Shown: piece after piece, positions 307 through 32,592 of the stretch
Position numbering within the stretch: the stretch's first letter is position 1
Layout of the letters: each line of letters opens with the position of its first letter
Assembly (NCBI GenBank): GCA_965116585.1
Contig: OZ220714.1
Location: 2,309,247 to 2,373,246 of the forward strand
Reading direction: 5' to 3'
Length of the DNA stretch: 64,000 nucleotides
Source of the DNA: Gammaproteobacteria bacterium
Lineage (GTDB): Bacteria > Pseudomonadota > Gammaproteobacteria > Eutrophobiales > Eutrophobiaceae
Program-made: the position numbers and the translations under genes
Notes under the pieces: generated by a model
Told to the model about the DNA's origin: nothing
Seen by the model: the letters and a program-made list of their open reading frames with translations, nothing else
The model's database searches: none

Positions 307-3044
307 TTACGGAACTGTTACCTGAAGTTGTAAGTAAAGGAAAGTTCCCTGCCAGGGAACGACGGAATCGCTGCGATAGATACGGCCGCAACAGGTTTCG
401 AACTCGCCGCGTTCGGGGTACACGTCGAACAGGTTGTGCGCGCCGGCTTTCACGGAAAAGCGATCGCCGAAATGCAGGGTCGCTTCTGCGTCAACCATAA
501 ACCTGGCGCCGAAACTCTGGATCACGGCCAGGTCCGCCGTGCTGGTATTTTCATAATCGCCGTAGTAGCGCCCCCGCAGCAGCAGGTCAATACGCTCCCG
601 CGTATGATGCAGGGATGCCACGCCGCGCAGGTGCGGCGCGCCGTTTTCAGAGTCAAACTGCGCTTCTGCGTTAACGAAACGACCGCGCTCGACAAGCCGG
701 GTTTTATTGTAGTTGCCGGCCAGGTGCAGTATGTTACTGCCGCCGAAACCGTCAAACTCGAAATTGGCTGACAGGTCAACGCCGCGGGTTTTCGAATCCA
801 CGTCGTTGGTGAAAAAGCGCACGTGGGCAATGCTGTTGGCGCCCGGCACACCCAGCGCTGCCAGTTGTGCGACCTGTTCGGGCGCGACGGCAAACTGTGA
901 TGACAACACGATGCGATCATCAAGCCGGATGTGGTAGTAATCAAGGCTCAGGGTGAGGCCGTCCAGCGGTTCTGCGGCGAAACCGAGACTGTAAGAGGTC
1001 GAGTCCTCGGCGTCCAGCGGACGGCCGCCGAACAAGGCTGAAGCCGGGTGTTCGGCAGGGTAGATCCCTTCTGCCTGGGGCAGGCCGTTCGGGTTGACCC
1101 GGGTGGAGACGTTGGTGGTCGAGATCTGGCCTGGTGTCGGCGCGCGAAAACCCGTGCCGACGGAACCGCGCAGGTTGAGATAATCCGTGAGACGGTAACG
1201 CGCGGCCAGTTTCCAGGTGACTACGTCACCGAAATCGGAGAAATGGTCGAAGCGCAGCAGGCCGTTAAGCAGTAATTCATCCGTCAAATCCATCTGCAGG
1301 TCGATATACCCGGCGTAGTTGCTGCGGCTGAGACTGCCGGCGAACTCCGGTGCGTAACCGGGAAAACCGTTCGAGCCGACCGGTACCGTGTTATGGCTCG
1401 GGTCACCGGCCGGGCACAGCGAACCGACCGCTTCCAGACCGGGAATCCGGCACTCTATAACGTTCAGATCATCGTCCGGGTGCGCATCAACCTCAGCCTG
1501 GGTAATCTCGAAATTAAACGGATCAGCGCCGGCATAGGGTCCGATGGCATAGGATAGCGGGTCACCGGCTTCGATCCGGTAACGCTCGCGCCGGTATTCA
1601 AAACCAAACGCGGCATTCATGGGGGCGGCAAAACCCAGTTCCACGGGCAAACTGAAATCGGCATTCACGGCCAGTTCGTCATTGATCAGGTTGCCGGGCC
1701 GGAAGCGTGTCGGCGTCTCCGGCCCCAGCGACGGATTGAGTGTGTTGGCGATCCGGTAACGGATCTCGTCAGAGCCGTAACTCAGCGAAAGATCCAGGTT
1801 GAAACCGTTGTTCAATTCCCCGCGCAGGCCGCCGGCCATGCTGTAATCGATCACTTCCCCGAAAAATTGCGGCGTGAACCCCGCGGGATACAGACCGGCG
1901 CGCGGGTCATGGATCGAGCCGTCTGCCAGTCGTAACGGCAATAACTGGCTGACACCGGGGCGCCGGTAGAAGAAACCGCCATTCTGGTCCTTCCAGGAGT
2001 AACTGCCGAAACCATACAGCTCGAACAGTTCCGAAACCGGCAGCGCCGCATTGGCAAAGAACAGCGCTTGTTCACGCTCCGGCTGCCCCCAGATCTGCGC
2101 CGGGCTGTCGAATTTACGTTCGCCACCGACGCTGGTGAAATTGTCGGCGAAGCGTGTGTCCGGGTCGTCCGGTATGCCGTCGCTGCCGGGCAACACCTGT
2201 TCAATCGTGCCGTCGGGCCGGTAGGTATAGGTAAACGCATCCGGCCCGTAATACGTCACCCCGTCCACCGTTAACCGGTTTTGCGTGGCCTGCAACGGCG
2301 TCTGTCCCGAACTGCCGATGGCAAGATCATAAGGCTGCGAGCGGCTGCTTGGTCGGGCATTCGAATATTGCCCGCTGATGTTGATAAAACCGTCACTGCC
2401 CAGGCCGAAACCGGCGTTGGCTTCAACGGTAAGTTCCTCGCCATCGCCTTCCGTATAGCTGCCGTATTTACTGCGCAACTCGAAGCCGGTGCGATTCTCC
2501 CTGAGGTTGAAGTTGATGACACCGGCAATGGCGTCGGAACCGTACTGGGCGGCGGCGCTGTCCCGGAGCGTTTCCACGGATTGCAAGGCAATGGAAGGAA
2601 TACTGCCCACGTCGGGGCCATGCGCGCCAAAGCCGCCGAGTTGCATCAGCGCGGCGCGATGGCGGCGTTTGCCGTTCACAAGAACCAGGGAATGGTGCGA
2701 ATCCAGACCACGCAGGCTGACCGGGCGGATAAAGGTGGAGCCGTCGGAGATGGGCTGACGGGTAACGTTAAACGAGGGGACGATGGTATTGATGACATCC
2801 ACCATGTCCGATGAATTGACGCTCTCAAGATCGTGCAGTGAGAAGACGTCAACCGGCACGGCGGCATCGCGTGCGGCGCGTGGTGAGGCCCGCGTGCCGA
2901 TGGTGACGACTTCTTCAATCTCCGCGTGCGAGTGTTTTTCTTCGCCCTGGGCCGCTGCCGGGATAGTTACGATAAATCCGAGGCCAAGCCACAGTGACAA
3001 AAAACCGGGACGGGCGTTCAGGGTTGCAAAAAATTTATCCATGG
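307..3044 (-). CDS. TonB-dependent outer-membrane receptor
   Basis: 918-aa ORF with a signal peptide (FLSLWLGLGFIVTIPAAAQ), a plug domain (VVTIGTRAS...VPVDVFSL...), and a long beta-barrel region rich in G/Y/F/N/R/D. The likely start is the ATG at 3042..3044 (MDKFF...). Confidence 0.85.
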
Positions 3045-3139
3045 CACAAACACAGATTAGCACAGATTATTTTGGTCTTTTCGAGTAAAACCTTGCGCAG
3101 AATGACCAGGAAATTTATGCGTCATTTGCGAACCTCTTC

Positions 3140-3170
3140 CGTCATTCCCGCGCAGGCGGGAATCCAGTGA
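3140..3170. repeat. REP-like palindrome (same family as 29911, 37493, 62669)
   Basis: CGTCATTCCCGCGCAGGCGGGAATCCAGTGA. Confidence 0.6.
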
Positions 3171-3259
3171 AAAAAACACCCCGAAGGGATACTTTGTAAT
3201 GTGTGGCAACTATCAAAAATAATCTGTGTTAATCTGTGTTTGCGCTGTGGATAATCCTT

Positions 3260-3712
3260 ATGAAAGTTGAAAAAACCTTTACCGTGCAGACCTCCCCGCA
3301 AGTGGTGTGGGATTTTGCCAAAGACCCGGAGAAGATGGCGCCGTGCATTCCCGGTTGCACGGCGATCAGTGTGGTCGATGACACCCGTTACCGGGCGCGG
3401 GTGGCGGTGAAGGTAGGTCCGATCTCGGCGAAGTTCAACCTGGACCTGGAGATCATCGAGGAAACGCCGCCCGTGGAGATCATTTCCAAGACTCGCGGCG
3501 AGGAAGGCACCCGCGCCAGTATGTTGACGGCAGACAACGTCGTGCGTCTCACAGCCAATGACGATGGTTCCACCGAGGTCTATTGCAGTTCGGAATCCTC
3601 CATCACCGGGCGCCTGGGCAAATATGGCGCCGGCATGATGATGAAAAAAGCCGACGCCATCTGGGACAAGCTGGCCGGGAACGTATGCAAGGCAATAGAA
3701 GCAAGCGTCTGA
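3260..3712 (+). CDS. coxG: CoxG-like SRPBCC family protein (carbon monoxide dehydrogenase subunit G family)
   Basis: MKVEKTFTVQTSPQVVWDFAKDPEKMAPCIPGC... matches the CoxG/SRPBCC pattern. It sits immediately upstream of the CoxM/S/L-like genes. Confidence 0.8.
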   Translation: MKVEKTFTVQTSPQVVWDFAKDPEKMAPCIPGCTAISVVDDTRYRARVAVKVGPISAKFNLDLEIIEETPPVEIISKTRGEEGTRASMLTADNVVRLTANDDGSTEVYCSSESSITGRLGKYGAGMMMKKADAIWDKLAGNVCKAIEASV

Positions 3713-5245: not shown

Positions 5246-7592
5246 TCCATTCATCGACGATTCGGGTCTTGCCAGACCGGACGCCGGTAGATTCATACAC
5301 GGCCGGGGTCGTTATCTTGATGATATCTCGCTCACCGGCATGCTCCACGTGGTTTATGTACGCAGCCCCTATGCCCATGCAAAAATCGACGGCGTTGATA
5401 CTTCAAAAGCACGGGAAGTCTGTGACGTCAGCCACGTTTTCACCGGACAGGACCTGGCCGCGGTCTGCCAACCCTGGACTGCGCAACTGACCAACCTGGG
5501 TGAGATGAAGACCGCGCCGCAGGCGGCCATGCCTACGGACATCGTCAGGTGGCAGGGTGAGCCGGTTGCCGCGGTGGTGGCGAATTCCAGGGCTATCGCC
5601 GAGGACGCGGCGGAACTGGTCGAGGTGGATTACACAGAATTACCGGCAGTCACGGATCCGGAGGCGGCGCGCAGCACAGATGCGCCCCTGGTCCATCCGC
5701 AACTGGGGACTAACGTTGCCTGGTCGATCAACATCGATACGGGTGAGGTGGAGGAAGCCATGGCCGCGGCCGACCTGGTGATAGAGAGGATGTTCGAGGT
5801 CAACCGGCAGACCGGCGTCACGCTGGAACCACGCGGCGCCATCGCCGACTACGATCCGTCCCGGCGTTACCTGACCCTGTACCTGACCAGTCAGGTGCCC
5901 CATATCCAGCGCTATATCTACGCCCGGCAACTGGGGCTGAAGGAAGCGAACGTGCGCATCATCTGTCCGGATATCGGTGGCGGCTTCGGGCTGAAACTGC
6001 ACGTGTATTCCGACGAGATCGCCACTGCCGCGATCAGCATGCTGATACGGCGGCCGGTAAAATTCGTCGCCGACAGGCTGGAATCGTTTGTGTCCGACAT
6101 CCATGCCCGCGGGCACCGGGTAAAAGCCCGCATGGGAGTTAATCGCGACGGGACCATCCAGGCCCTGGAAGTGGACGACCTGGCCGGCGCCGGGCCGTAT
6201 CTTATCCATCCCCGCACCAGTGTAATCGAACCCCTGCTGGTCGCCATCTGTACGCCGCTGGCCTACGACCTCAAGCACTACCGCGCGGTTGCCTCGCTGG
6301 TGTACCAGAACAAGGTCAGCACCGGCCAGTACCGCGGCGTGGGTATGCCCGTTGCCAGCCTGGTGGCGGAAGGGATGGTCGATGCGGCTGCCAGGGCGAT
6401 CGGTCTGGACCAGGTCGAGATCAGGAAACGCAACCTGTACCGGGACGACGCCTACCCCGTTACCGCTATCTCCGGTGAATATCTCGAATGCCTGTCCCAG
6501 CAGGCCTCCCTGGACAAGTTGTTGGGAATGATGGACTACGACGGGTTGCGCGAGGAACGTGACGCGAGGCGCAATCAAGACGCCTACAGGGGTATCGGTC
6601 TGGCCACCGTGGTGGAGGGAACGTCGCCCAGTCCCGCGCTGTATGCCGCGGGTGGCGCGCCGATCAGTTCCCGGGACGCCTGTACCCTGCGCCTGGAAGC
6701 GGACGGCAACATCTCCTGCGCCACCGGCCTGACCGACCAGGGCCAGGGCGGCGAGGCCGTGGTGACGTCCATCATCTCCGCGGTGCTGGGTGTGGCGCGG
6801 GACGAGATCAACGTCGTCATGGGCGATACCGCCACCACACCGTTCGGTGGCGGCACCTGGGCATCCAGGGGCACGGCCATCGCCGGCGAGGCGTGCCTGC
6901 TGGCGGCGAGGGAGATGCGGGAAAAGATACTGGAAGTGGCCGCCGTAGCTCACGAACAACCCGCGGACATACTCACCATTCGGGCCGGCAACATCATCAA
7001 CCTGGAGACGGACGAGCAGGTCTCATCTCTGGCGGCAATCGGCAACACCGTCCATTTCAACACCCACACCCTGCCCAGGGACCTGGAACCGGAACTGATT
7101 GTCACCCGCCATTACAGCCAGCGCGAACAACTCATGGTGTATGCCAACTGCGCGCTCGGCGTTTCCCTGGAAGTGGACGTGAACACCGGCCTGGTGACGC
7201 TGCACAAAGTCTGGGCAGTGGATGACTGCGGCCGCATCATCAACGAAAAACTGGTAGTGGAACAACTGCGCGGCAGCATCGTCCAGGGCATCGGTTCCAG
7301 CCTGTATGAAGAGTGCATCTACGACGCAGCCGGCCAGTTGCTGAACGGCAACATGTTCGAGTACCTGCTACCCATGGCCGGCGAAATGCCCGACATCGAG
7401 GTAGAACACATCGAAACCCCCACCAAAGCCACCCAACTAGGCGCCAAAGGCTGCGGCGAAGCCGGCATCATCGCCATCTGCGGCGCCATCATGAACGGGA
7501 TTAACGACGCGCTGGAGCCTTTCGGGGTGGAGGTGACTTCACAGCCGTTTACGCCGGAGAAGATATTGAGGGTGTTGGGGAGGGTTGGTTAA
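5238..7592 (+). CDS. Molybdopterin-binding large subunit of a xanthine dehydrogenase family enzyme (CoxL-like; probably not a form I CO dehydrogenase)
   Basis: ~785 aa with aldehyde oxidase/xanthine DH a/b hammerhead and Mo-binding regions. The start overlaps the coxS-like stop (ATGCCTGA). The form I CODH active-site signature AYRCSFR is not visible; GQYRGVG is found instead. The last 214 bp are duplicated at 20783..20996. Confidence 0.85.
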   Translation: MPDPFIDDSGLARPDAGRFIHGRGRYLDDISLTGMLHVVYVRSPYAHAKIDGVDTSKAREVCDVSHVFTGQDLAAVCQPWTAQLTNLGEMKTAPQAAMPTDIVRWQGEPVAAVVANSRAIAEDAAELVEVDYTELPAVTDPEAARSTDAPLVHPQLGTNVAWSINIDTGEVEEAMAAADLVIERMFEVNRQTGVTLEPRGAIADYDPSRRYLTLYLTSQVPHIQRYIYARQLGLKEANVRIICPDIGGGFGLKLHVYSDEIATAAISMLIRRPVKFVADRLESFVSDIHARGHRVKARMGVNRDGTIQALEVDDLAGAGPYLIHPRTSVIEPLLVAICTPLAYDLKHYRAVASLVYQNKVSTGQYRGVGMPVASLVAEGMVDAAARAIGLDQVEIRKRNLYRDDAYPVTAISGEYLECLSQQASLDKLLGMMDYDGLREERDARRNQDAYRGIGLATVVEGTSPSPALYAAGGAPISSRDACTLRLEADGNISCATGLTDQGQGGEAVVTSIISAVLGVARDEINVVMGDTATTPFGGGTWASRGTAIAGEACLLAAREMREKILEVAAVAHEQPADILTIRAGNIINLETDEQVSSLAAIGNTVHFNTHTLPRDLEPELIVTRHYSQREQLMVYANCALGVSLEVDVNTGLVTLHKVWAVDDCGRIINEKLVVEQLRGSIVQGIGSSLYEECIYDAAGQLLNGNMFEYLLPMAGEMPDIEVEHIETPTKATQLGAKGCGEAGIIAICGAIMNGINDALEPFGVEVTSQPFTPEKILRVLGRVG
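7379..7592 (+). repeat. Left copy of a 214-bp direct repeat (3' end of the CoxL-like gene); putative attL of the inserted island
   Basis: 97% identical to 20783..20996; the first ~130 bp are identical and about 6 mismatches cluster in the last 80 bp. Confidence 0.85.
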
Positions 7593-8468: not shown

Positions 8469-8537
8469 GCCTTGCCTGTTTTCGGAATAGTAATATAAGG
8501 ATTTTAACCACGGAGTATTTTATTCGCAATGGACACC

Positions 8538-8656
8538 CTTGGATACCGCTGAGATCTGCTACCATTAACTCCACAAAAAAGAACAGCCGCGTTAGCGGCG
8601 GCTGTCGGGCCGTGGCTCCCTTCCTGTTATGACAAGGTATGGGCATACCAACGGTG
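8538..8656. repeat. Copy 1 of a ~120-170-bp intergenic repeat family (hairpin ACAGCCGC-GTTAGCG-GCGGCTGT preceded by an A-run, plus a TGTCATGACA-like palindrome)
   Basis: Near-identical to 26986..27157 and 13600..13729. Copy 1 diverges after ...CCAACGGTG and abuts the IS66-like insertion. Confidence 0.7.
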
Positions 8657-10976: not shown

Positions 10977-11036
10977 TTACGAAAAATTTTAATTTGAGTA
11001 GTAATTTAGCTTCACCATGTAGCGCGAGGTGCAACT

Positions 11037-11297
11037 ATGGTAGCCTTTGAAAATCTCTTAAAAACAGAGTCCGATTTCTATGAACGTGAGCAACACAATC
11101 TTTTGGTAAAGTACCCCAACAGGGTTTTGTTAATACACGGTGATCATGTTGAAGGGGATTTTGATTCCGGGAATGCGGCCATATCAGAAGGAGTTCGCAA
11201 GTTTGGTACAGGTCCGTTTTTAGCCAGGAGAGCCGGGGAAGAAGAGCCTGTTTTTTTCAGTGCCAGCATTAACGTTGAGTCTGTAAAATGTCGGTAA
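11037..11297 (+). CDS. 86-aa conserved hypothetical protein (paralog A of the 23007..23267 protein)
   Basis: ~80% aa identity with the ORF at 23007..23267. The ~30 bp upstream (…GTAGCGCGAGGTGCAACTATGG) is also conserved in both copies. No recognisable domain. Confidence 0.6.
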   Translation: MVAFENLLKTESDFYEREQHNLLVKYPNRVLLIHGDHVEGDFDSGNAAISEGVRKFGTGPFLARRAGEEEPVFFSASINVESVKCR

Positions 11298-11352
11298 GAG
11301 TGCAACGGACAGCATTAATCTGGCGATACAGGAAGAATTGGCTGCCAGGTAC

Positions 11353-13505: not shown

Positions 13506-13599
13506 GGGTTTGCTCCCGAACCAAGCCCGTTGTCGACGACTAGCTCCCGAGATTTATACCGCCCCAAACTTCGATACTCTACTACACAATTCCCCAAAA

Positions 13600-13729
13600 A
13601 AAGAACAGCCGCGTTAGCGGCGGCTGTCGGGCCGTGGCTCCCTCCTGTCATGACAAGGCATGGGCACACCAACGGTGAGGTTGAGCAAAGTCTATTATAA
13701 CACCCGACACTGTGTCAATGATTTGAATC
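13600..13729. repeat. Copy 2 of the intergenic repeat family
   Basis: ...CCCCAAAAAAAGAACAGCCGCGTTAGCGGCGGCTGTCGGGCCGTGGCTCCC...GTCAATGATTTGAATC is almost identical to 27020..27157. Confidence 0.7.
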
Positions 13730-20782: not shown

Positions 20783-20996
20783 CGGCGAAATGCCCGACAT
20801 CGAGGTAGAACACATCGAAACCCCCACCAAAGCCACCCAACTAGGCGCCAAAGGCTGCGGCGAAGCCGGCATCATCGCCATCTGCGGCGCCATCATGAAC
20901 GGGATTAACGATGCGCTGGAACCGTTCGGGGCGGAGGTGACTTCACAGCCGTTTACGCCGGAGAAGATATTGAGGGTGTTGGGGAAGGTTGGTTAG
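20783..20996 (+). repeat. Right copy of the 214-bp direct repeat; orphan 3' fragment of the CoxL-like gene; putative attR
   Basis: Encodes MPDIEVEHIETPTKATQLGAKGCGEAGIIAICGAIMNGINDALEPFGAEVTSQPFTPEKILRVLGKVG, the last 68 aa of the CoxL-like protein with 3 substitutions. Confidence 0.85.
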
Positions 20997-22786: not shown

Positions 22787-23006
22787 ATGCATTGATTCTG
22801 TCTATCGACAAATAAAACGATTAAAAAGCGACCTTAGGTGATGGCTTCTCTCAGAGGTAAAATAAATTACATAGGGCAATTTAATTCAAAGCAGGTGGCC
22901 CGCTTGGAAAAATTTTTCCTGATTGCTGATTCCGATTTCAACGTGAACGCGGATTCCGGGAAAGTGAACACCGATTTAGCTTGACCACGTAACGCGAGGT
23001 GCAACT

Positions 23007-23267
23007 ATGGCAGCTTTTGAAAATCTCTTAAAAACAGAGTCCGATTTCTACGGACGCGAGCAACACAATCTATTGGCGAAGTACCCCAACAGGGTTTTGT
23101 TGATACACGGTGATCGTGTTGAAGGAGATTTTGATTCCGAGGAAGCGGCAATTACAGAAGGGGTACGCAAGTTTGGCGTAGGTCCGTTTTTAGTCAGGAG
23201 AGCCGGAGAACAAGAACCTGTTTTTTTCAGCGCCAGCATTAGCGTTGGGCCTGTAAAATGTTGGTAA
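23007..23267 (+). CDS. 86-aa conserved hypothetical protein (paralog B)
   Basis: MAAFENLLKTESDFYGREQHNLLAKYPNRVLLIHGDRVEGDFDS... is ~80% identical to the 11037..11297 product. Confidence 0.6.
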   Translation: MAAFENLLKTESDFYGREQHNLLAKYPNRVLLIHGDRVEGDFDSEEAAITEGVRKFGVGPFLVRRAGEQEPVFFSASISVGPVKCW

Positions 23268-23360
23268 GGTGCGACAAGGATCGTTATTGTACACAGAACT
23301 GGATGAACCTAGGTTCAAGGATTATTTACATTATTTTTTTGTCGAAGGAATCTACATAAC

Positions 23361-26985: not shown

Positions 26986-27157
26986 CCTTGGATATCGCTG
27001 AGATATGCTACCATTAGCTCCACAAAAAAGAACAGCCGCGTTAGCGGCGGCTGTCGGGCCGTGGCTCCCTTCCTGTCATGACAAGGCATGGGCACACCAA
27101 CGGTGAGGTTGAGCAAAGTCTATTATAACACCCGACACTGTGTCAATGATTTGAATC
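26986..27157. repeat. Copy 3 (longest) of the intergenic repeat family
   Basis: CCTTGGATATCGCTGAGATATGCTACCATTAGCTCCACAAAAAAGAACAGCCGCGTTAGCGGCGGCTGTCGGG...GATTTGAATCA. Confidence 0.7.
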
Positions 27158-30956: not shown

Positions 30957-31046
30957 GCCGCCTGGAGTATTATCATCTTGAATATCTGATAACGGAGAGA
31001 CGACTGTGGAGTTCAACCTGACCCTGCAAGAAAATAGAGAACCATA

Positions 31047-31422
31047 ATGGGTAACCAGGCAGACATGCAGGAGATGATCGAACTGTTCGAAGCGGAGTTG
31101 CGGCTCTGCGGGCTGGATTCCAGCCAGAAGCTCGCGGTGCTTTCGGAAGGCGAAAACCTGCAGGATTACGCTGAAGCATTTCGGCTGGGGTCTGAACGAG
31201 GACGCAAAGTGGGACGTGACGTTACCGGGGATCTGTATGGACGGGCGCGCCTATTACGGCAACGTTCTGTTTTCCACCGGCCCCAACACCGAGTTCGGCG
31301 GCGACAACGACACCGCTTGCCACCTGGACCTGCCCATGAAAAACTGCTCACTGTGGCTGGACAACGACATCATCGTAAAAGACGGCCAGGTAATCCCTGA
31401 AGACTTACAAGCACGAGGATAA
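31047..31422 (+). pseudogene. Remnant of an aminopeptidase-T/M29-like gene with an internal deletion or frameshift
   Basis: Frame-3 ORF has a credible ~50-aa N-terminus and then Arg-rich junk. Frame 1 carries a credible C-terminus ...GNVLFSTGPNTEFGGDNDTACHLDLPMKNCSLWLDNDIIVKDGQVI. Confidence 0.35.
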
Positions 31423-31427
31423 TATCA

Positions 31428-31811
31428 ATGATTGAAGCACTGAGTTCAAACAACCTGCCGGCGCCCCGGTTCCGCTACAGCCCGCTGGTCAAGGCGGGGC
31501 CGTTCTACAAAACCGCCGGCATGATCGCCCTGAACAAGGAAACTGGCCAACTGGAACCAGGCGGCGCCGGCCCGGAGACAGCCAGGATCCTCAGCAACCT
31601 GCTGGAAGCCCTGCCCGATTTCGGTCTGACCCTGGACGACCTGGTCAGCGCAACCATCTTCACCACGCAAATGGACCGGTTCCCGGATATCAACAAGGCA
31701 TGGGAAGCGGTATTCAGCGCCGACATGCGCCTGCCCGCCCGCACGGCCGTCGGCGCCACGGCATTGCCCATCAATGCCGCGGTGGAGATGGAGTTCTGGT
31801 TTTATAAATAA
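31428..31811 (+). CDS. ridA: RidA/YjgF/L-PSP family protein
   Basis: 127 aa; ...APRFRYSPLVKAGPFYKTAG...PARTAVGATALPINAAVEMEF are family signatures. Confidence 0.8.
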   Translation: MIEALSSNNLPAPRFRYSPLVKAGPFYKTAGMIALNKETGQLEPGGAGPETARILSNLLEALPDFGLTLDDLVSATIFTTQMDRFPDINKAWEAVFSADMRLPARTAVGATALPINAAVEMEFWFYK

Positions 31812-31844
31812 AATCAGATTATTGGTACAGAGCGAATAAATACT

Positions 31845-31892
31845 TGTTACTTCCCATTTTGGGAATGATAATTCCCAAAATGGGAAGTAACA
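31845..31892. terminator. 48-bp near-perfect palindrome (22-bp arms, 4-bp spacer) between ridA and the redoxin gene; likely a bidirectional terminator or regulatory hairpin
   Basis: TGTTACTTCCCATTTTGGGAAT-GATA-ATTCCCAAAATGGGAAGTAACA. Confidence 0.45.
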
Positions 31893-31926
31893 TAACAGAC
31901 TCTGTATCTAAACTAAGGAGTGTAAC

Positions 31927-32592
31927 TTGAAAAAAATCCTTAAAGGTTTTGTAGCGGTCGCGATTATCCTGGGCCTGCCCTTTGCGGCTGTCATGCTGGA
32001 TACCCCGCCCATCAAACTTTTCGGCGGCAAGGTCATTGGACTCCTTGAAGGCCCCGTTACCGGCGGTATGTTCGTTTCCGAAGATACGGATGGTTTCAGC
32101 CCGGGCCTGCCAATCGGCGCCAGGTTCCCTGCTATCCGGGCACTTTATATGGGGCAGGAGATCACCAGCATCGAACAGTTTATGGGCGCGCGCGGGGCAG
32201 TCTTTGTTGCGGTACGTTCGGCGGACTGGTGACCCTACTGCAGAAGGCAGCTCGTGCAGTTGCAGGAACAGGAAGCGGACTTCGAGGAGGCCGGTATCGG
32301 CATTGTTGCGATTACTTATGATGCGCCGGAGCTGCAACAGGTGTTCATTGATGCTGCTTCCATTACCTACCCGCTCCTCTCGGATGTCGATGCGGTAACT
32401 ATTAAGACTCTTGGCATCCTGAACGAGCAGTACGAACGGGGGGATACAGCATACGGGATCCCTCACCCAGGAGTATTCGTAATTGATCCGGAGATGAATA
32501 TCGCCGGCAAGATATTCGTTGAGGATTATCAGGTGCGGGTGGACGGCGAGGGCACACTCGCTTACGCGCTGGAAGTCCTGAACGCGCTTTAA
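31927..32592 (+). CDS. Secreted AhpC/TSA-family redoxin (thiol:disulfide oxidoreductase/peroxiredoxin-like); candidate selenoprotein with in-frame TGA (Sec) at 32230..32232
   Basis: Two same-frame ORFs (31927..32232 and 32254..32592) are separated only by a TGA. Read-through gives ...FVAVRSADW-U-PYCRRQLVQLQEQEADFEEAGIGIVAITYDAPEL...PLLSD...GVFVIDP, with Sec at the first Cys of the CxxC motif. A CTGCAG...TGCAG stem-loop follows the TGA. TTG start with an AAGGAG ribosome-binding site; signal peptide. Confidence 0.55.

Follow-up and report, generated by a model that had tools for sequence, protein, structure and literature searches.

The closest described relatives of the gene reported here belong to a selenoprotein family listed as Prx-like 1 or "Prx-like thiol:disulfide oxidoreductase" (Zhang et al. 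2005, PMC1088965; Zhang and Gladyshev 2008, PMC2398784, Table 2; and a review, PMC9312934, Table 1). In the Global Ocean Sampling (GOS) study, members of this family had a pfam00578 domain and a UxxC motif (where U is selenocysteine), and 225 selenoproteins and 2,740 Cys-containing homologues were counted (PMC2398784). No biochemical characterisation of the family is stated in these three accounts. The DNA analysed here (the window) is a 64,000 nt stretch of the 3.81-Mb contig OZ220714.1 from an uncultured gammaproteobacterium. On its forward strand, positions 31927-32592 form one frame of 221 codons plus a TAA stop codon (32590-32592), with a single internal TGA at 32230-32232. From sequence comparisons, we consider it very probable that this frame encodes one 221-residue Prx-like 1 selenoprotein in which the TGA specifies selenocysteine (Sec) at residue 102.

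The window protein resembles Prx-like 1 in its Pfam domain, in a UxxC motif with Sec in the first position (rather than the TxxU arrangement), in the surrounding sequence RS[AV]DW-U-P[YF]C, in the abundance of its Cys-containing homologues and in its marine setting. TGA-containing homologues were found as well (see below), and candidate stem-loops resembling a selenocysteine insertion sequence (SECIS), here called B and C, are located just past the TGA. Among the GOS supplementary sequences filed under Prx-like 1, RSADWUPYC occurs 13 times, WUPYC 67 times and WUPFC 27 times. Two of these published members are clearly homologous to the window protein: JCVI_READ_486929 (43% identity over 136 aa, E-value: 9e-36), with U at the same residue, and JCVI_READ_900765 (34% identity over 169 aa, E-value: 2e-29). 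The window protein differs from the published members in having a longer N-terminal linker (residues ~25-45) and, at 34-43% identity, it represents a lineage apart from them, drawn from metagenome-assembled genomes (MAGs) of uncultured Gammaproteobacteria. One MAG of this clade is apparently coral-derived, judging by its isolate name; a literature search on selenoproteins in sponge symbionts found nothing.

A mechanical list of open reading frames (ORFs) gives the gene as two pieces, 31927..32232 (101 aa) and 32254..32592 (112 aa). The original prediction, made from the DNA alone, held that these ORFs share one frame and are split only by the TGA, which can be seen directly in the DNA, and that gene prediction would give two fragments or a pseudogene; gene callers do report two fragments. 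When the TGA is replaced with Cys, the read-through protein matches Pfam AhpC-TSA (PF00578; E-value: 3.7e-22, 79 bits against a cut-off of 26) over residues 63-193 (bp 32113..32505), a match that spans the TGA, and it also matches Pfam Redoxin (E-value: 3.1e-12). When full-length homologues were aligned to it (20 at first, later 39), the TGA column coincided with an invariant Cys, the first of W-C-P-Y-C, in agreement with the earlier placement of the TGA at the first Cys of a redoxin CxxC motif.

Evidence on the nature of this codon comes from its distribution among relatives. Two sets were compared: a TGA-type set of 19 loci, made up of the window's clade (~12 strains or species) and five more distant lineages, and a Cys-type set of 150 homologues, all of which are more distant than the window's clade. 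At position 102 the codon is TGA in 19/19 TGA-type loci and TGC or TGT in 150/150 of the others. Recurrence of TGA at one codon in 19 independent assemblies goes far beyond chance. Metagenome contig L001 is 97-98% identical to the window across 12 kb and has the same TGA; the two redoxin genes differ by 20 substitutions, 14 of which are synonymous, and after the TGA there are six synonymous changes and one non-synonymous change. A scan of one genome per species identified the TGA in eight uncultured gammaproteobacterial genomes (L002-L009, 79-88% identity) and in L019 (68% identity), while ~70 remoter matches from the same scan (≤59% identity; Halioglobus, Colwellia, Acidobacteriota, Hyphomonas and others) all have TGC or TGT. 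A scan of JGI metagenomes added one TGA-type relative, L082 (90% identity), the remainder being Cys-type. Finally, five further lineages (L164-L171) that are 57-69% identical to the window protein have TGA at W-U-P-[Y/F]-C in an otherwise intact read-through ORF; among them are a Halioglobus MAG and a circular contig of 6.03 Mb.

These data bear on two simple explanations of the TGA. The first is a sequencing or assembly error that turned TGC or TGT into TGA. Nothing specific speaks for such an error beyond the fact that single-base errors do occur in metagenome assemblies, and it is refuted by replication: the identical codon recurs among independent ENA, NCBI, JGI and Logan assemblies, whether a long-read or a short-read assembler was used. 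Its probability is negligible. The second is that the TGA arose recently as a nonsense mutation, a finding in orthologues that, if coupled with a lack of SECIS conservation, the original prediction had named as refuting the Sec reading. This is not what the orthologues show, as the TGA is kept in all 19 loci. Sec-type sequences are 55-91% identical among themselves and their best Cys-type relatives are ~60% identical, so the Sec state is old and common to several lineages.

Fragments of this kind are also well represented in protein databases. The 112-aa C-terminal piece belongs to a 90%-identity cluster with 112 members, nearly all of them 110-112 aa in length, and its 120 best matches are all of fragment length (92-134 aa, mostly 107-116 aa, at 58-92% identity). 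As only fragment-length proteins appear among these best matches, the split form is widespread.

Selection on the region downstream of the TGA was assessed in the 11 intact clade members, among which pairwise synonymous divergence (dS) reaches ~0.7; L019 was left out. The Nei-Gojobori ratio of non-synonymous to synonymous differences per site (pN/pS) is 0.20 for codons 103-220, 0.26 for codons 26-101 and 0.48 for the signal region. Because this ratio is as low after the TGA as before it, and drift towards 1 would be expected past a true stop codon, the 3' half of the gene appears to be translated. The P-Y-C that follows the TGA and all family-invariant residues are kept, and synonymous diversity has its gene-interior minimum at codons 101-120, just past the TGA.

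It could still be proposed that the TGA terminates translation and that the two ORFs are dead remnants of a Cys-type redoxin gene. Gene callers do report two fragments, and gene decay does occur in the region, since a neighbouring gene (31047-31422) is a deletion remnant. In addition, the L019 copy (3001-3646 of OZ245331.1, a 2.75-Mb genome) is really decaying: while it keeps the TGA, a deletion of 11 nt shifts the frame within the invariant FP..A motif, and invariant residues are substituted (PLLSD to QLLSD and D206 to Y). In this smaller genome, the copy is apparently a pseudogene. Against this proposal, the TGA is kept in 19 loci across 57-98% protein identity, and 18 of the 19 are free of additional stop codons and frameshifts. 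The pN/pS of 0.20 after the TGA and the retention of P-Y-C and the other invariant residues point the same way. We regard the pseudogene explanation as effectively refuted by the selection analysis and its remaining probability as very low.

A further explanation is a split gene, in which a 101-aa N-terminal and a 112-aa C-terminal polypeptide, the latter re-initiated at a GTG (32254), would act separately or reassemble. A weak Shine-Dalgarno-like AAGG is present 6 nt upstream of this GTG, and a 107-116-aa fragment is consistently called. However, such a split would lose both redox residues, with U102 serving as the stop and C105 falling in the untranslated gap. Amino-acid conservation nevertheless extends through this gap: codons 103-109 (PYC[RK]RQL) show K/R exchanges, and C105 is invariant. 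Furthermore, the start of the C-terminal fragment varies by lineage (giving 107-116 aa), as expected of an ORF-calling artefact. We therefore consider a split gene highly improbable and retain the reading of a single selenoprotein.

A bacterial Sec codon is expected to be followed by a SECIS element, such as the SelB-binding hairpin directly 3' of the UGA in E. coli fdhF. No sequence similarity to fdhF-type elements was established for the window gene, where two candidate registers exist; bacterial SECIS elements are described as heterogeneous (literature including PMC9312934). Three overlapping hairpin registers can be drawn after the UGA because UGCAG is present three times. Stem A (32237-32242 with 32255-32260) is the CTGCAG/TGCAG stem-loop of the original prediction, stem B (32247-32252 with 32258-32263) is a 6-bp hairpin, GCAGCU-CGUGC-AGUUGC, with an invariant G in its loop, and stem C (32238-32243 with 32260-32265, and an inner helix of 32247-32248 with 32256-32257) begins 5 nt past the UGA and is the best SECIS candidate. 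Stems B and C are mutually exclusive. All three are nearly invariant inside the window's clade, where covariation is uninformative because the sequences are too alike, so the registers were compared over 12 lineages.

Stem A does form in the window, where it is the minimum free energy structure (-12.7 kcal/mol, z -0.62 relative to shuffled sequences), but it is a feature of the window's clade only. Over 12 lineages it is 84% paired with no compensatory changes, and among the five distant TGA-type lineages only one gives it a negative energy (-1.2 kcal/mol), the other four being at or above zero. On these grounds it was rejected, and register A is probably not the conserved element. The hairpin first proposed shares its 5' arm with a conserved hairpin, but its 3' arm differs and it is not conserved in distant TGA-type relatives.

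Stems B and C behave differently. Stem B is 98.6% paired over 12 lineages, with a full C-G to U-A change in L166 and AU, GU and GC at another pair; its covariation score was reached by 7/500 shuffles, and its energy is favourable in every lineage. All six pairs are present in 17/19 TGA-type genes and in 20/150 Cys-type genes. Stem C has 95.8% of cells paired over 12 lineages, with compensatory C-G to U-A and G-C to C-G changes at two pairs, and all eight of its pairs are present in 15/18 TGA-type genes and in 0/150 Cys-type genes. Nor is it complete in any of the 50 Cys-type genes whose ..QL.[QE]LQ peptide is the same, which means that conservation of the amino acids is not a sufficient explanation. 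Local folding energies average -12.5 kcal/mol in Sec-type genes and -8.6 kcal/mol in Cys-type genes at similar GC content. A third helix (alignment columns 47-64, bp 32276-32293) has a few compensatory changes within the clade; typical bacterial SECIS elements are nearer to the UGA than this. By comparative analysis, a Sec-specific conserved hairpin is located 5-36 nt after the UGA, with registers B and C as the candidates.

The genetic code and other in-frame TGA codons were also considered. TGA is the commonest ordinary stop codon in the window (GC content 57%), where it ends 26/49 long ORFs; genome-wide reassignment of UGA (code 4 or 25) was rejected for this reason. A search of the window for a second hidden selenoprotein, covering in-frame TGA codons with open flanks and intergenic read-through ORFs, returned only adjacent genes, shadow frames and junk. 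A candidate was found in L171, however, in a UGSC-family gene (1692-2087, - strand) with an in-frame TGA at 1692-1694 (...MAIGH-U-STCAPAVV...), 8 kb from the Sec-type redoxin. Its read-through product matches Pfam UGSC across the TGA (E-value: 1.8e-23), a -16.6 kcal/mol hairpin follows the TGA, and the gene adjoins genes for a rhodanese and another redoxin. This gene is a second candidate selenoprotein and lends indirect support to the presence of Sec machinery.

Several observations weigh against the interpretation of the window gene as a selenoprotein. Searches with E. coli SelA, SelB and SelD (tblastn) gave no match in the window and all loci, which cover less than 2% of the genome, and ARAGORN found no tRNA-Sec (selC) in the window and 11 Sec-clade loci. 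Taken by itself, the window sequence of 46-76 nt after the UGA folds no better than shuffled sequences (z -0.62 and +0.25). Rfam searches of the whole window at gathering thresholds, and of 32150-32400 at permissive E-values, identified no family near the gene, the sole match in the window being a tRNA-Gln. Covariation support is modest (7/500 and ~30/500 shuffles), the sequences are related and three registers overlap. Stem B also occurs in 13% of Cys-type genes (for example L010, L024, L026 and L062), in part because the Q-L-x-Q/E-L-Q peptide is near-palindromic at the codon level (CAG CTN ... NAG YTG). No gene for a DsbD/CcdA-type or other redox partner is adjacent in the window, and one clade member (L019, with its 11-nt deletion) has decayed. 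As for the Cys-type genes with stem B, this hairpin may act there as a "pre-SECIS" that eases switching from Cys to Sec in this redoxin family.

The absence of Sec machinery from the window and flanks also favours a further alternative, in which the UGA is read through with a residue other than Sec, either as Cys by a tRNA-Sec-like tRNA or as Trp or Cys by hairpin-promoted near-cognate decoding. Sec positions are naturally recoded in some bacteria, and the conserved TGA, the selection and the hairpin are evidence for translation of the codon and not for a particular residue. Three points argue against this alternative. First, the position, the UxxC motif and the family are those of an established selenoprotein family. 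Second, UGSC is another canonical selenoprotein family, and the in-frame TGA of the UGSC-family gene is on the same L171 contig as a Sec-type redoxin. Third, TGA is a single step from TGY, and this change should sweep if Cys sufficed, whereas TGA persists in old lineages. Non-Sec read-through is thus quite improbable. A related and more radical idea, that the UGA is decoded outside the SelA/SelB/SelC/SelD system (by a tRNA-Sec-like Cys tRNA, or by the hairpin without Sec machinery), is a long shot. We prefer insertion of Sec and infer the Sec trait for the source genome. TGA conservation, downstream selection, the Sec-specific hairpin and Prx-like 1 homology all support the original prediction that this TGA may be the Sec codon of an exported AhpC/TSA-type redoxin.

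The active site of the predicted protein is unlike that of a classical peroxiredoxin (Prx). In phmmer alignments against PDB sequences (AhpE, 1xvw, and BCP, 2cx3; E-value ~1e-6), Cys105 (TGC, 32239..32241), which is invariant in the family and would be the resolving Cys of UxxC, aligns to the peroxidatic Cys, while the TGA codon, first in U-P-Y-C, takes the place of the conserved Thr/Ser in T/S-x-x-C. Arg97 stands opposite the Prx Pro and Pro181 opposite the Prx Arg, and all three replacements are invariant in the family. Neither the Pro and Thr/Ser of the canonical PxxxTxxC motif nor the catalytic Arg is therefore found, and since Arg97, Sec102 and Pro181 occupy these three positions, a classical peroxiredoxin is unlikely. 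The predicted protein combines a peroxiredoxin fold with a UxxC centre of the thioredoxin type, without the catalytic residues of Prx.

The AlphaFold model of P0005, a Cys homologue 54% identical to the window protein (predicted local distance difference test, pLDDT, 91; predicted template modelling score, pTM, 0.86), has an N-terminal helix (residues 2-21) and a thioredoxin (Trx)/Prx core in which the first Cys is directly before helix 93-104. The nearest solved folds are BCP/PrxQ peroxiredoxins (Foldseek template modelling score, TM, up to 0.85). In NCBIfam, no model reached its cut-off; there were weak matches to PrxQ, ResA (30.8 bits, cut-off 170), the SelL-related model SelL_rel_redox (NF040769; 28.7 bits, cut-off 120) and WAxxUGC_long (NF041054; 28.2 bits, cut-off 300).

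Three groups of proteins can be compared with the window protein. The first is the Sec-containing Prx group, which shares the AhpC/TSA fold, Sec and a SECIS within the coding sequence. In these proteins, Sec is at the peroxidatic Cys position of T-x-x-U, whereas the window protein has Cys105 there and Sec at the Thr position (PMC1088965), and Arg97 and Pro181 in place of the Prx Pro and Arg. The second comprises BCP/PrxQ and AhpE (PDB 3hjp, 5enu, 5ima, 1xvw and 2cx3), the closest solved folds. These are only 15-23% identical, lack CxxC/UxxC, are cytoplasmic with no N-terminal signal and retain the catalytic Pro, Thr and Arg. The third is the ResA/TlpA/StoA group of extracytoplasmic, membrane-anchored thiol:disulfide oxidoreductases, which resembles the window protein in having an N-terminal anchor or signal followed by a Trx-fold domain with W-C-x-x-C, and to which there is a further weak match (PDB 3c71, E-value: 3.6e-4). 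Unlike these proteins, the window protein has a fold closer to Prx than to TlpA, and its gene has no cytochrome-maturation or DsbD/CcdA genes nearby. By analogy with this third group, reduction of periplasmic disulfides or oxidised thiols is a likely working model for its function.

The N-terminus of the window protein (bp 31927..32001) is a predicted export signal, either a signal peptide or a signal anchor, which consists of MKKILK and an 18-residue hydrophobic stretch. This hydrophobic segment was confirmed in the window protein itself, and distant Sec-type relatives have the textbook cleavage motifs VQA↓QP, AMA↓QP and LAA↓QP (arrow, cleavage site), so that the protein is likely exported. 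We infer Sec insertion, export, the substrate and the redox partner as parts of one scheme, with the chemistry taken from the fold and motif. A ribosome reaching the UGA (32230) would meet a SelB-type factor carrying Sec-tRNA(Sec), bound to the hairpin 5-36 nt downstream inside the coding sequence, and would insert Sec rather than terminate. The N-terminal signal, cleaved or kept as a membrane anchor, would direct the redoxin domain to the periplasmic side. Sec102 would then be positioned at the N-terminus of helix one in the thioredoxin-like core, which is where CxxC oxidoreductases have their nucleophile. Its selenolate would attack an oxidised substrate (a disulfide, a sulfenic acid or possibly a hydroperoxide), Cys105 would resolve the intermediate to give an intramolecular selenenylsulfide, and a reductant would recycle the latter.

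The TTG start (31927) and AAGGAG ribosome-binding site (RBS; 31915..31920, 6 nt from the start codon) named in the original prediction can both be read in the DNA, and GGAG and its spacing are kept in all clade members. While the RBS is constant, the start codon varies: it is TTG in the window, L001, L006-L008 and L082, CTG in L002-L005 and ATG-TTG in L009 and L019. CTG would be an unusual initiator; an in-frame TTG is present further upstream in L002 and L007.

The genes around the redoxin are reshuffled between related genomes. In the window, genes for RidA, an esterase and a major facilitator superfamily (MFS) transporter are found upstream, and convergent genes for a luciferase-like monooxygenase, an alpha/beta hydrolase, an MFS transporter and an M20 peptidase downstream. 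In six clade genomes (L002, JAJDUB010000004.1, 2363-2944; L003, L004, L006, L008 and probably L007), a 193-aa glutathione S-transferase (GST) gene (Pfam GST_N and GST_C) is directly upstream of the redoxin gene, ~55 nt away and in the same orientation. It is absent from the window, L001, L005 and L009, and GST-family genes are also found within ~2 kb of the redoxin gene in L169/L170 and L171. The adjacency of GST and redoxin may reflect a functional link; that the seleno-redoxin and the upstream GST form a periplasmic/cytoplasmic redox pair in host-associated Gammaproteobacteria is a speculative extension with little chance of being correct.

Window-L001 synteny ends ~25 nt upstream of the RBS. 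Toxin-antitoxin-like pairs are present beside the redoxin gene in two relatives: a Polbeta nucleotidyltransferase pair in L001 (12018-13068) and a RES toxin with an Xre antitoxin in L007 (3636-4756). Together with the synteny break, these neighbours place the gene at the edge of a variable islet. Next to the redoxin gene, two overlapping ORF fragments (31047-31422) are all that is left of a 358-aa gene, of which L002 (853-1929), L004 and L005 have intact copies. This deletion pseudogene has lost ~680 nt of its middle part, as window 31037-31180 corresponds to L002 861-1004 and window 31181-31804 to L002 1685-2309. The intact 358-aa protein has no Pfam match.

In the AT-rich spacer that separates the RidA gene from the redoxin RBS there is a perfect 22-nt inverted repeat, TGTTACTTCCCATTTTGGGAAT / ATTCCCAAAATGGGAAGTAACA, with a 4-nt loop (31845-31892, within an element at ~31831-31906), of which the window has no second copy. 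Further copies of the ~70-nt element are found at other upstream positions in L003 (983-1038), L006 (1316-1391) and L082 (337-405), and L001 has none. The element could serve as a terminator or an operator, or it could be a small mobile element. Elsewhere in the window, a ~130-nt intergenic repeat with a GC-rich hairpin, GCCGCGTTAGCGGCGGC, is present in three copies that are 95-99% identical (8537-8656, 13597-13729 and 26986-27157), and there are two repeat pairs, of ~300 nt (11004-11306 and 22974-23275, 88% identical) and 213 nt (7379-7591 and 20783-20995, 97.7% identical). The intergenic repeat families of the window have no Rfam match at gathering thresholds.

The gene itself, from an uncultured gammaproteobacterial clade, is new. 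It brings no new biology, because the family and the exact motif are already published, and knowledge of selenoproteins is left unchanged: the family, its motif and its marine abundance were described from ocean metagenomes in 2005-2008. The value of the finding is foremost practical, in that an intact gene is split in two by ordinary annotation. Public protein databases store it, together with over 120 related 90%-identity clusters, as two fragments (~85-101 aa and 107-116 aa). The long-lived pairing of Sec and Cys forms, with a coding-region hairpin that is complete in the Sec forms only, could be used to train and test predictors of bacterial SECIS elements and selenoproteins. As a consequence of storage as fragments, the selenoproteome and redox capacity of these marine, possibly host-associated bacteria are under-counted.

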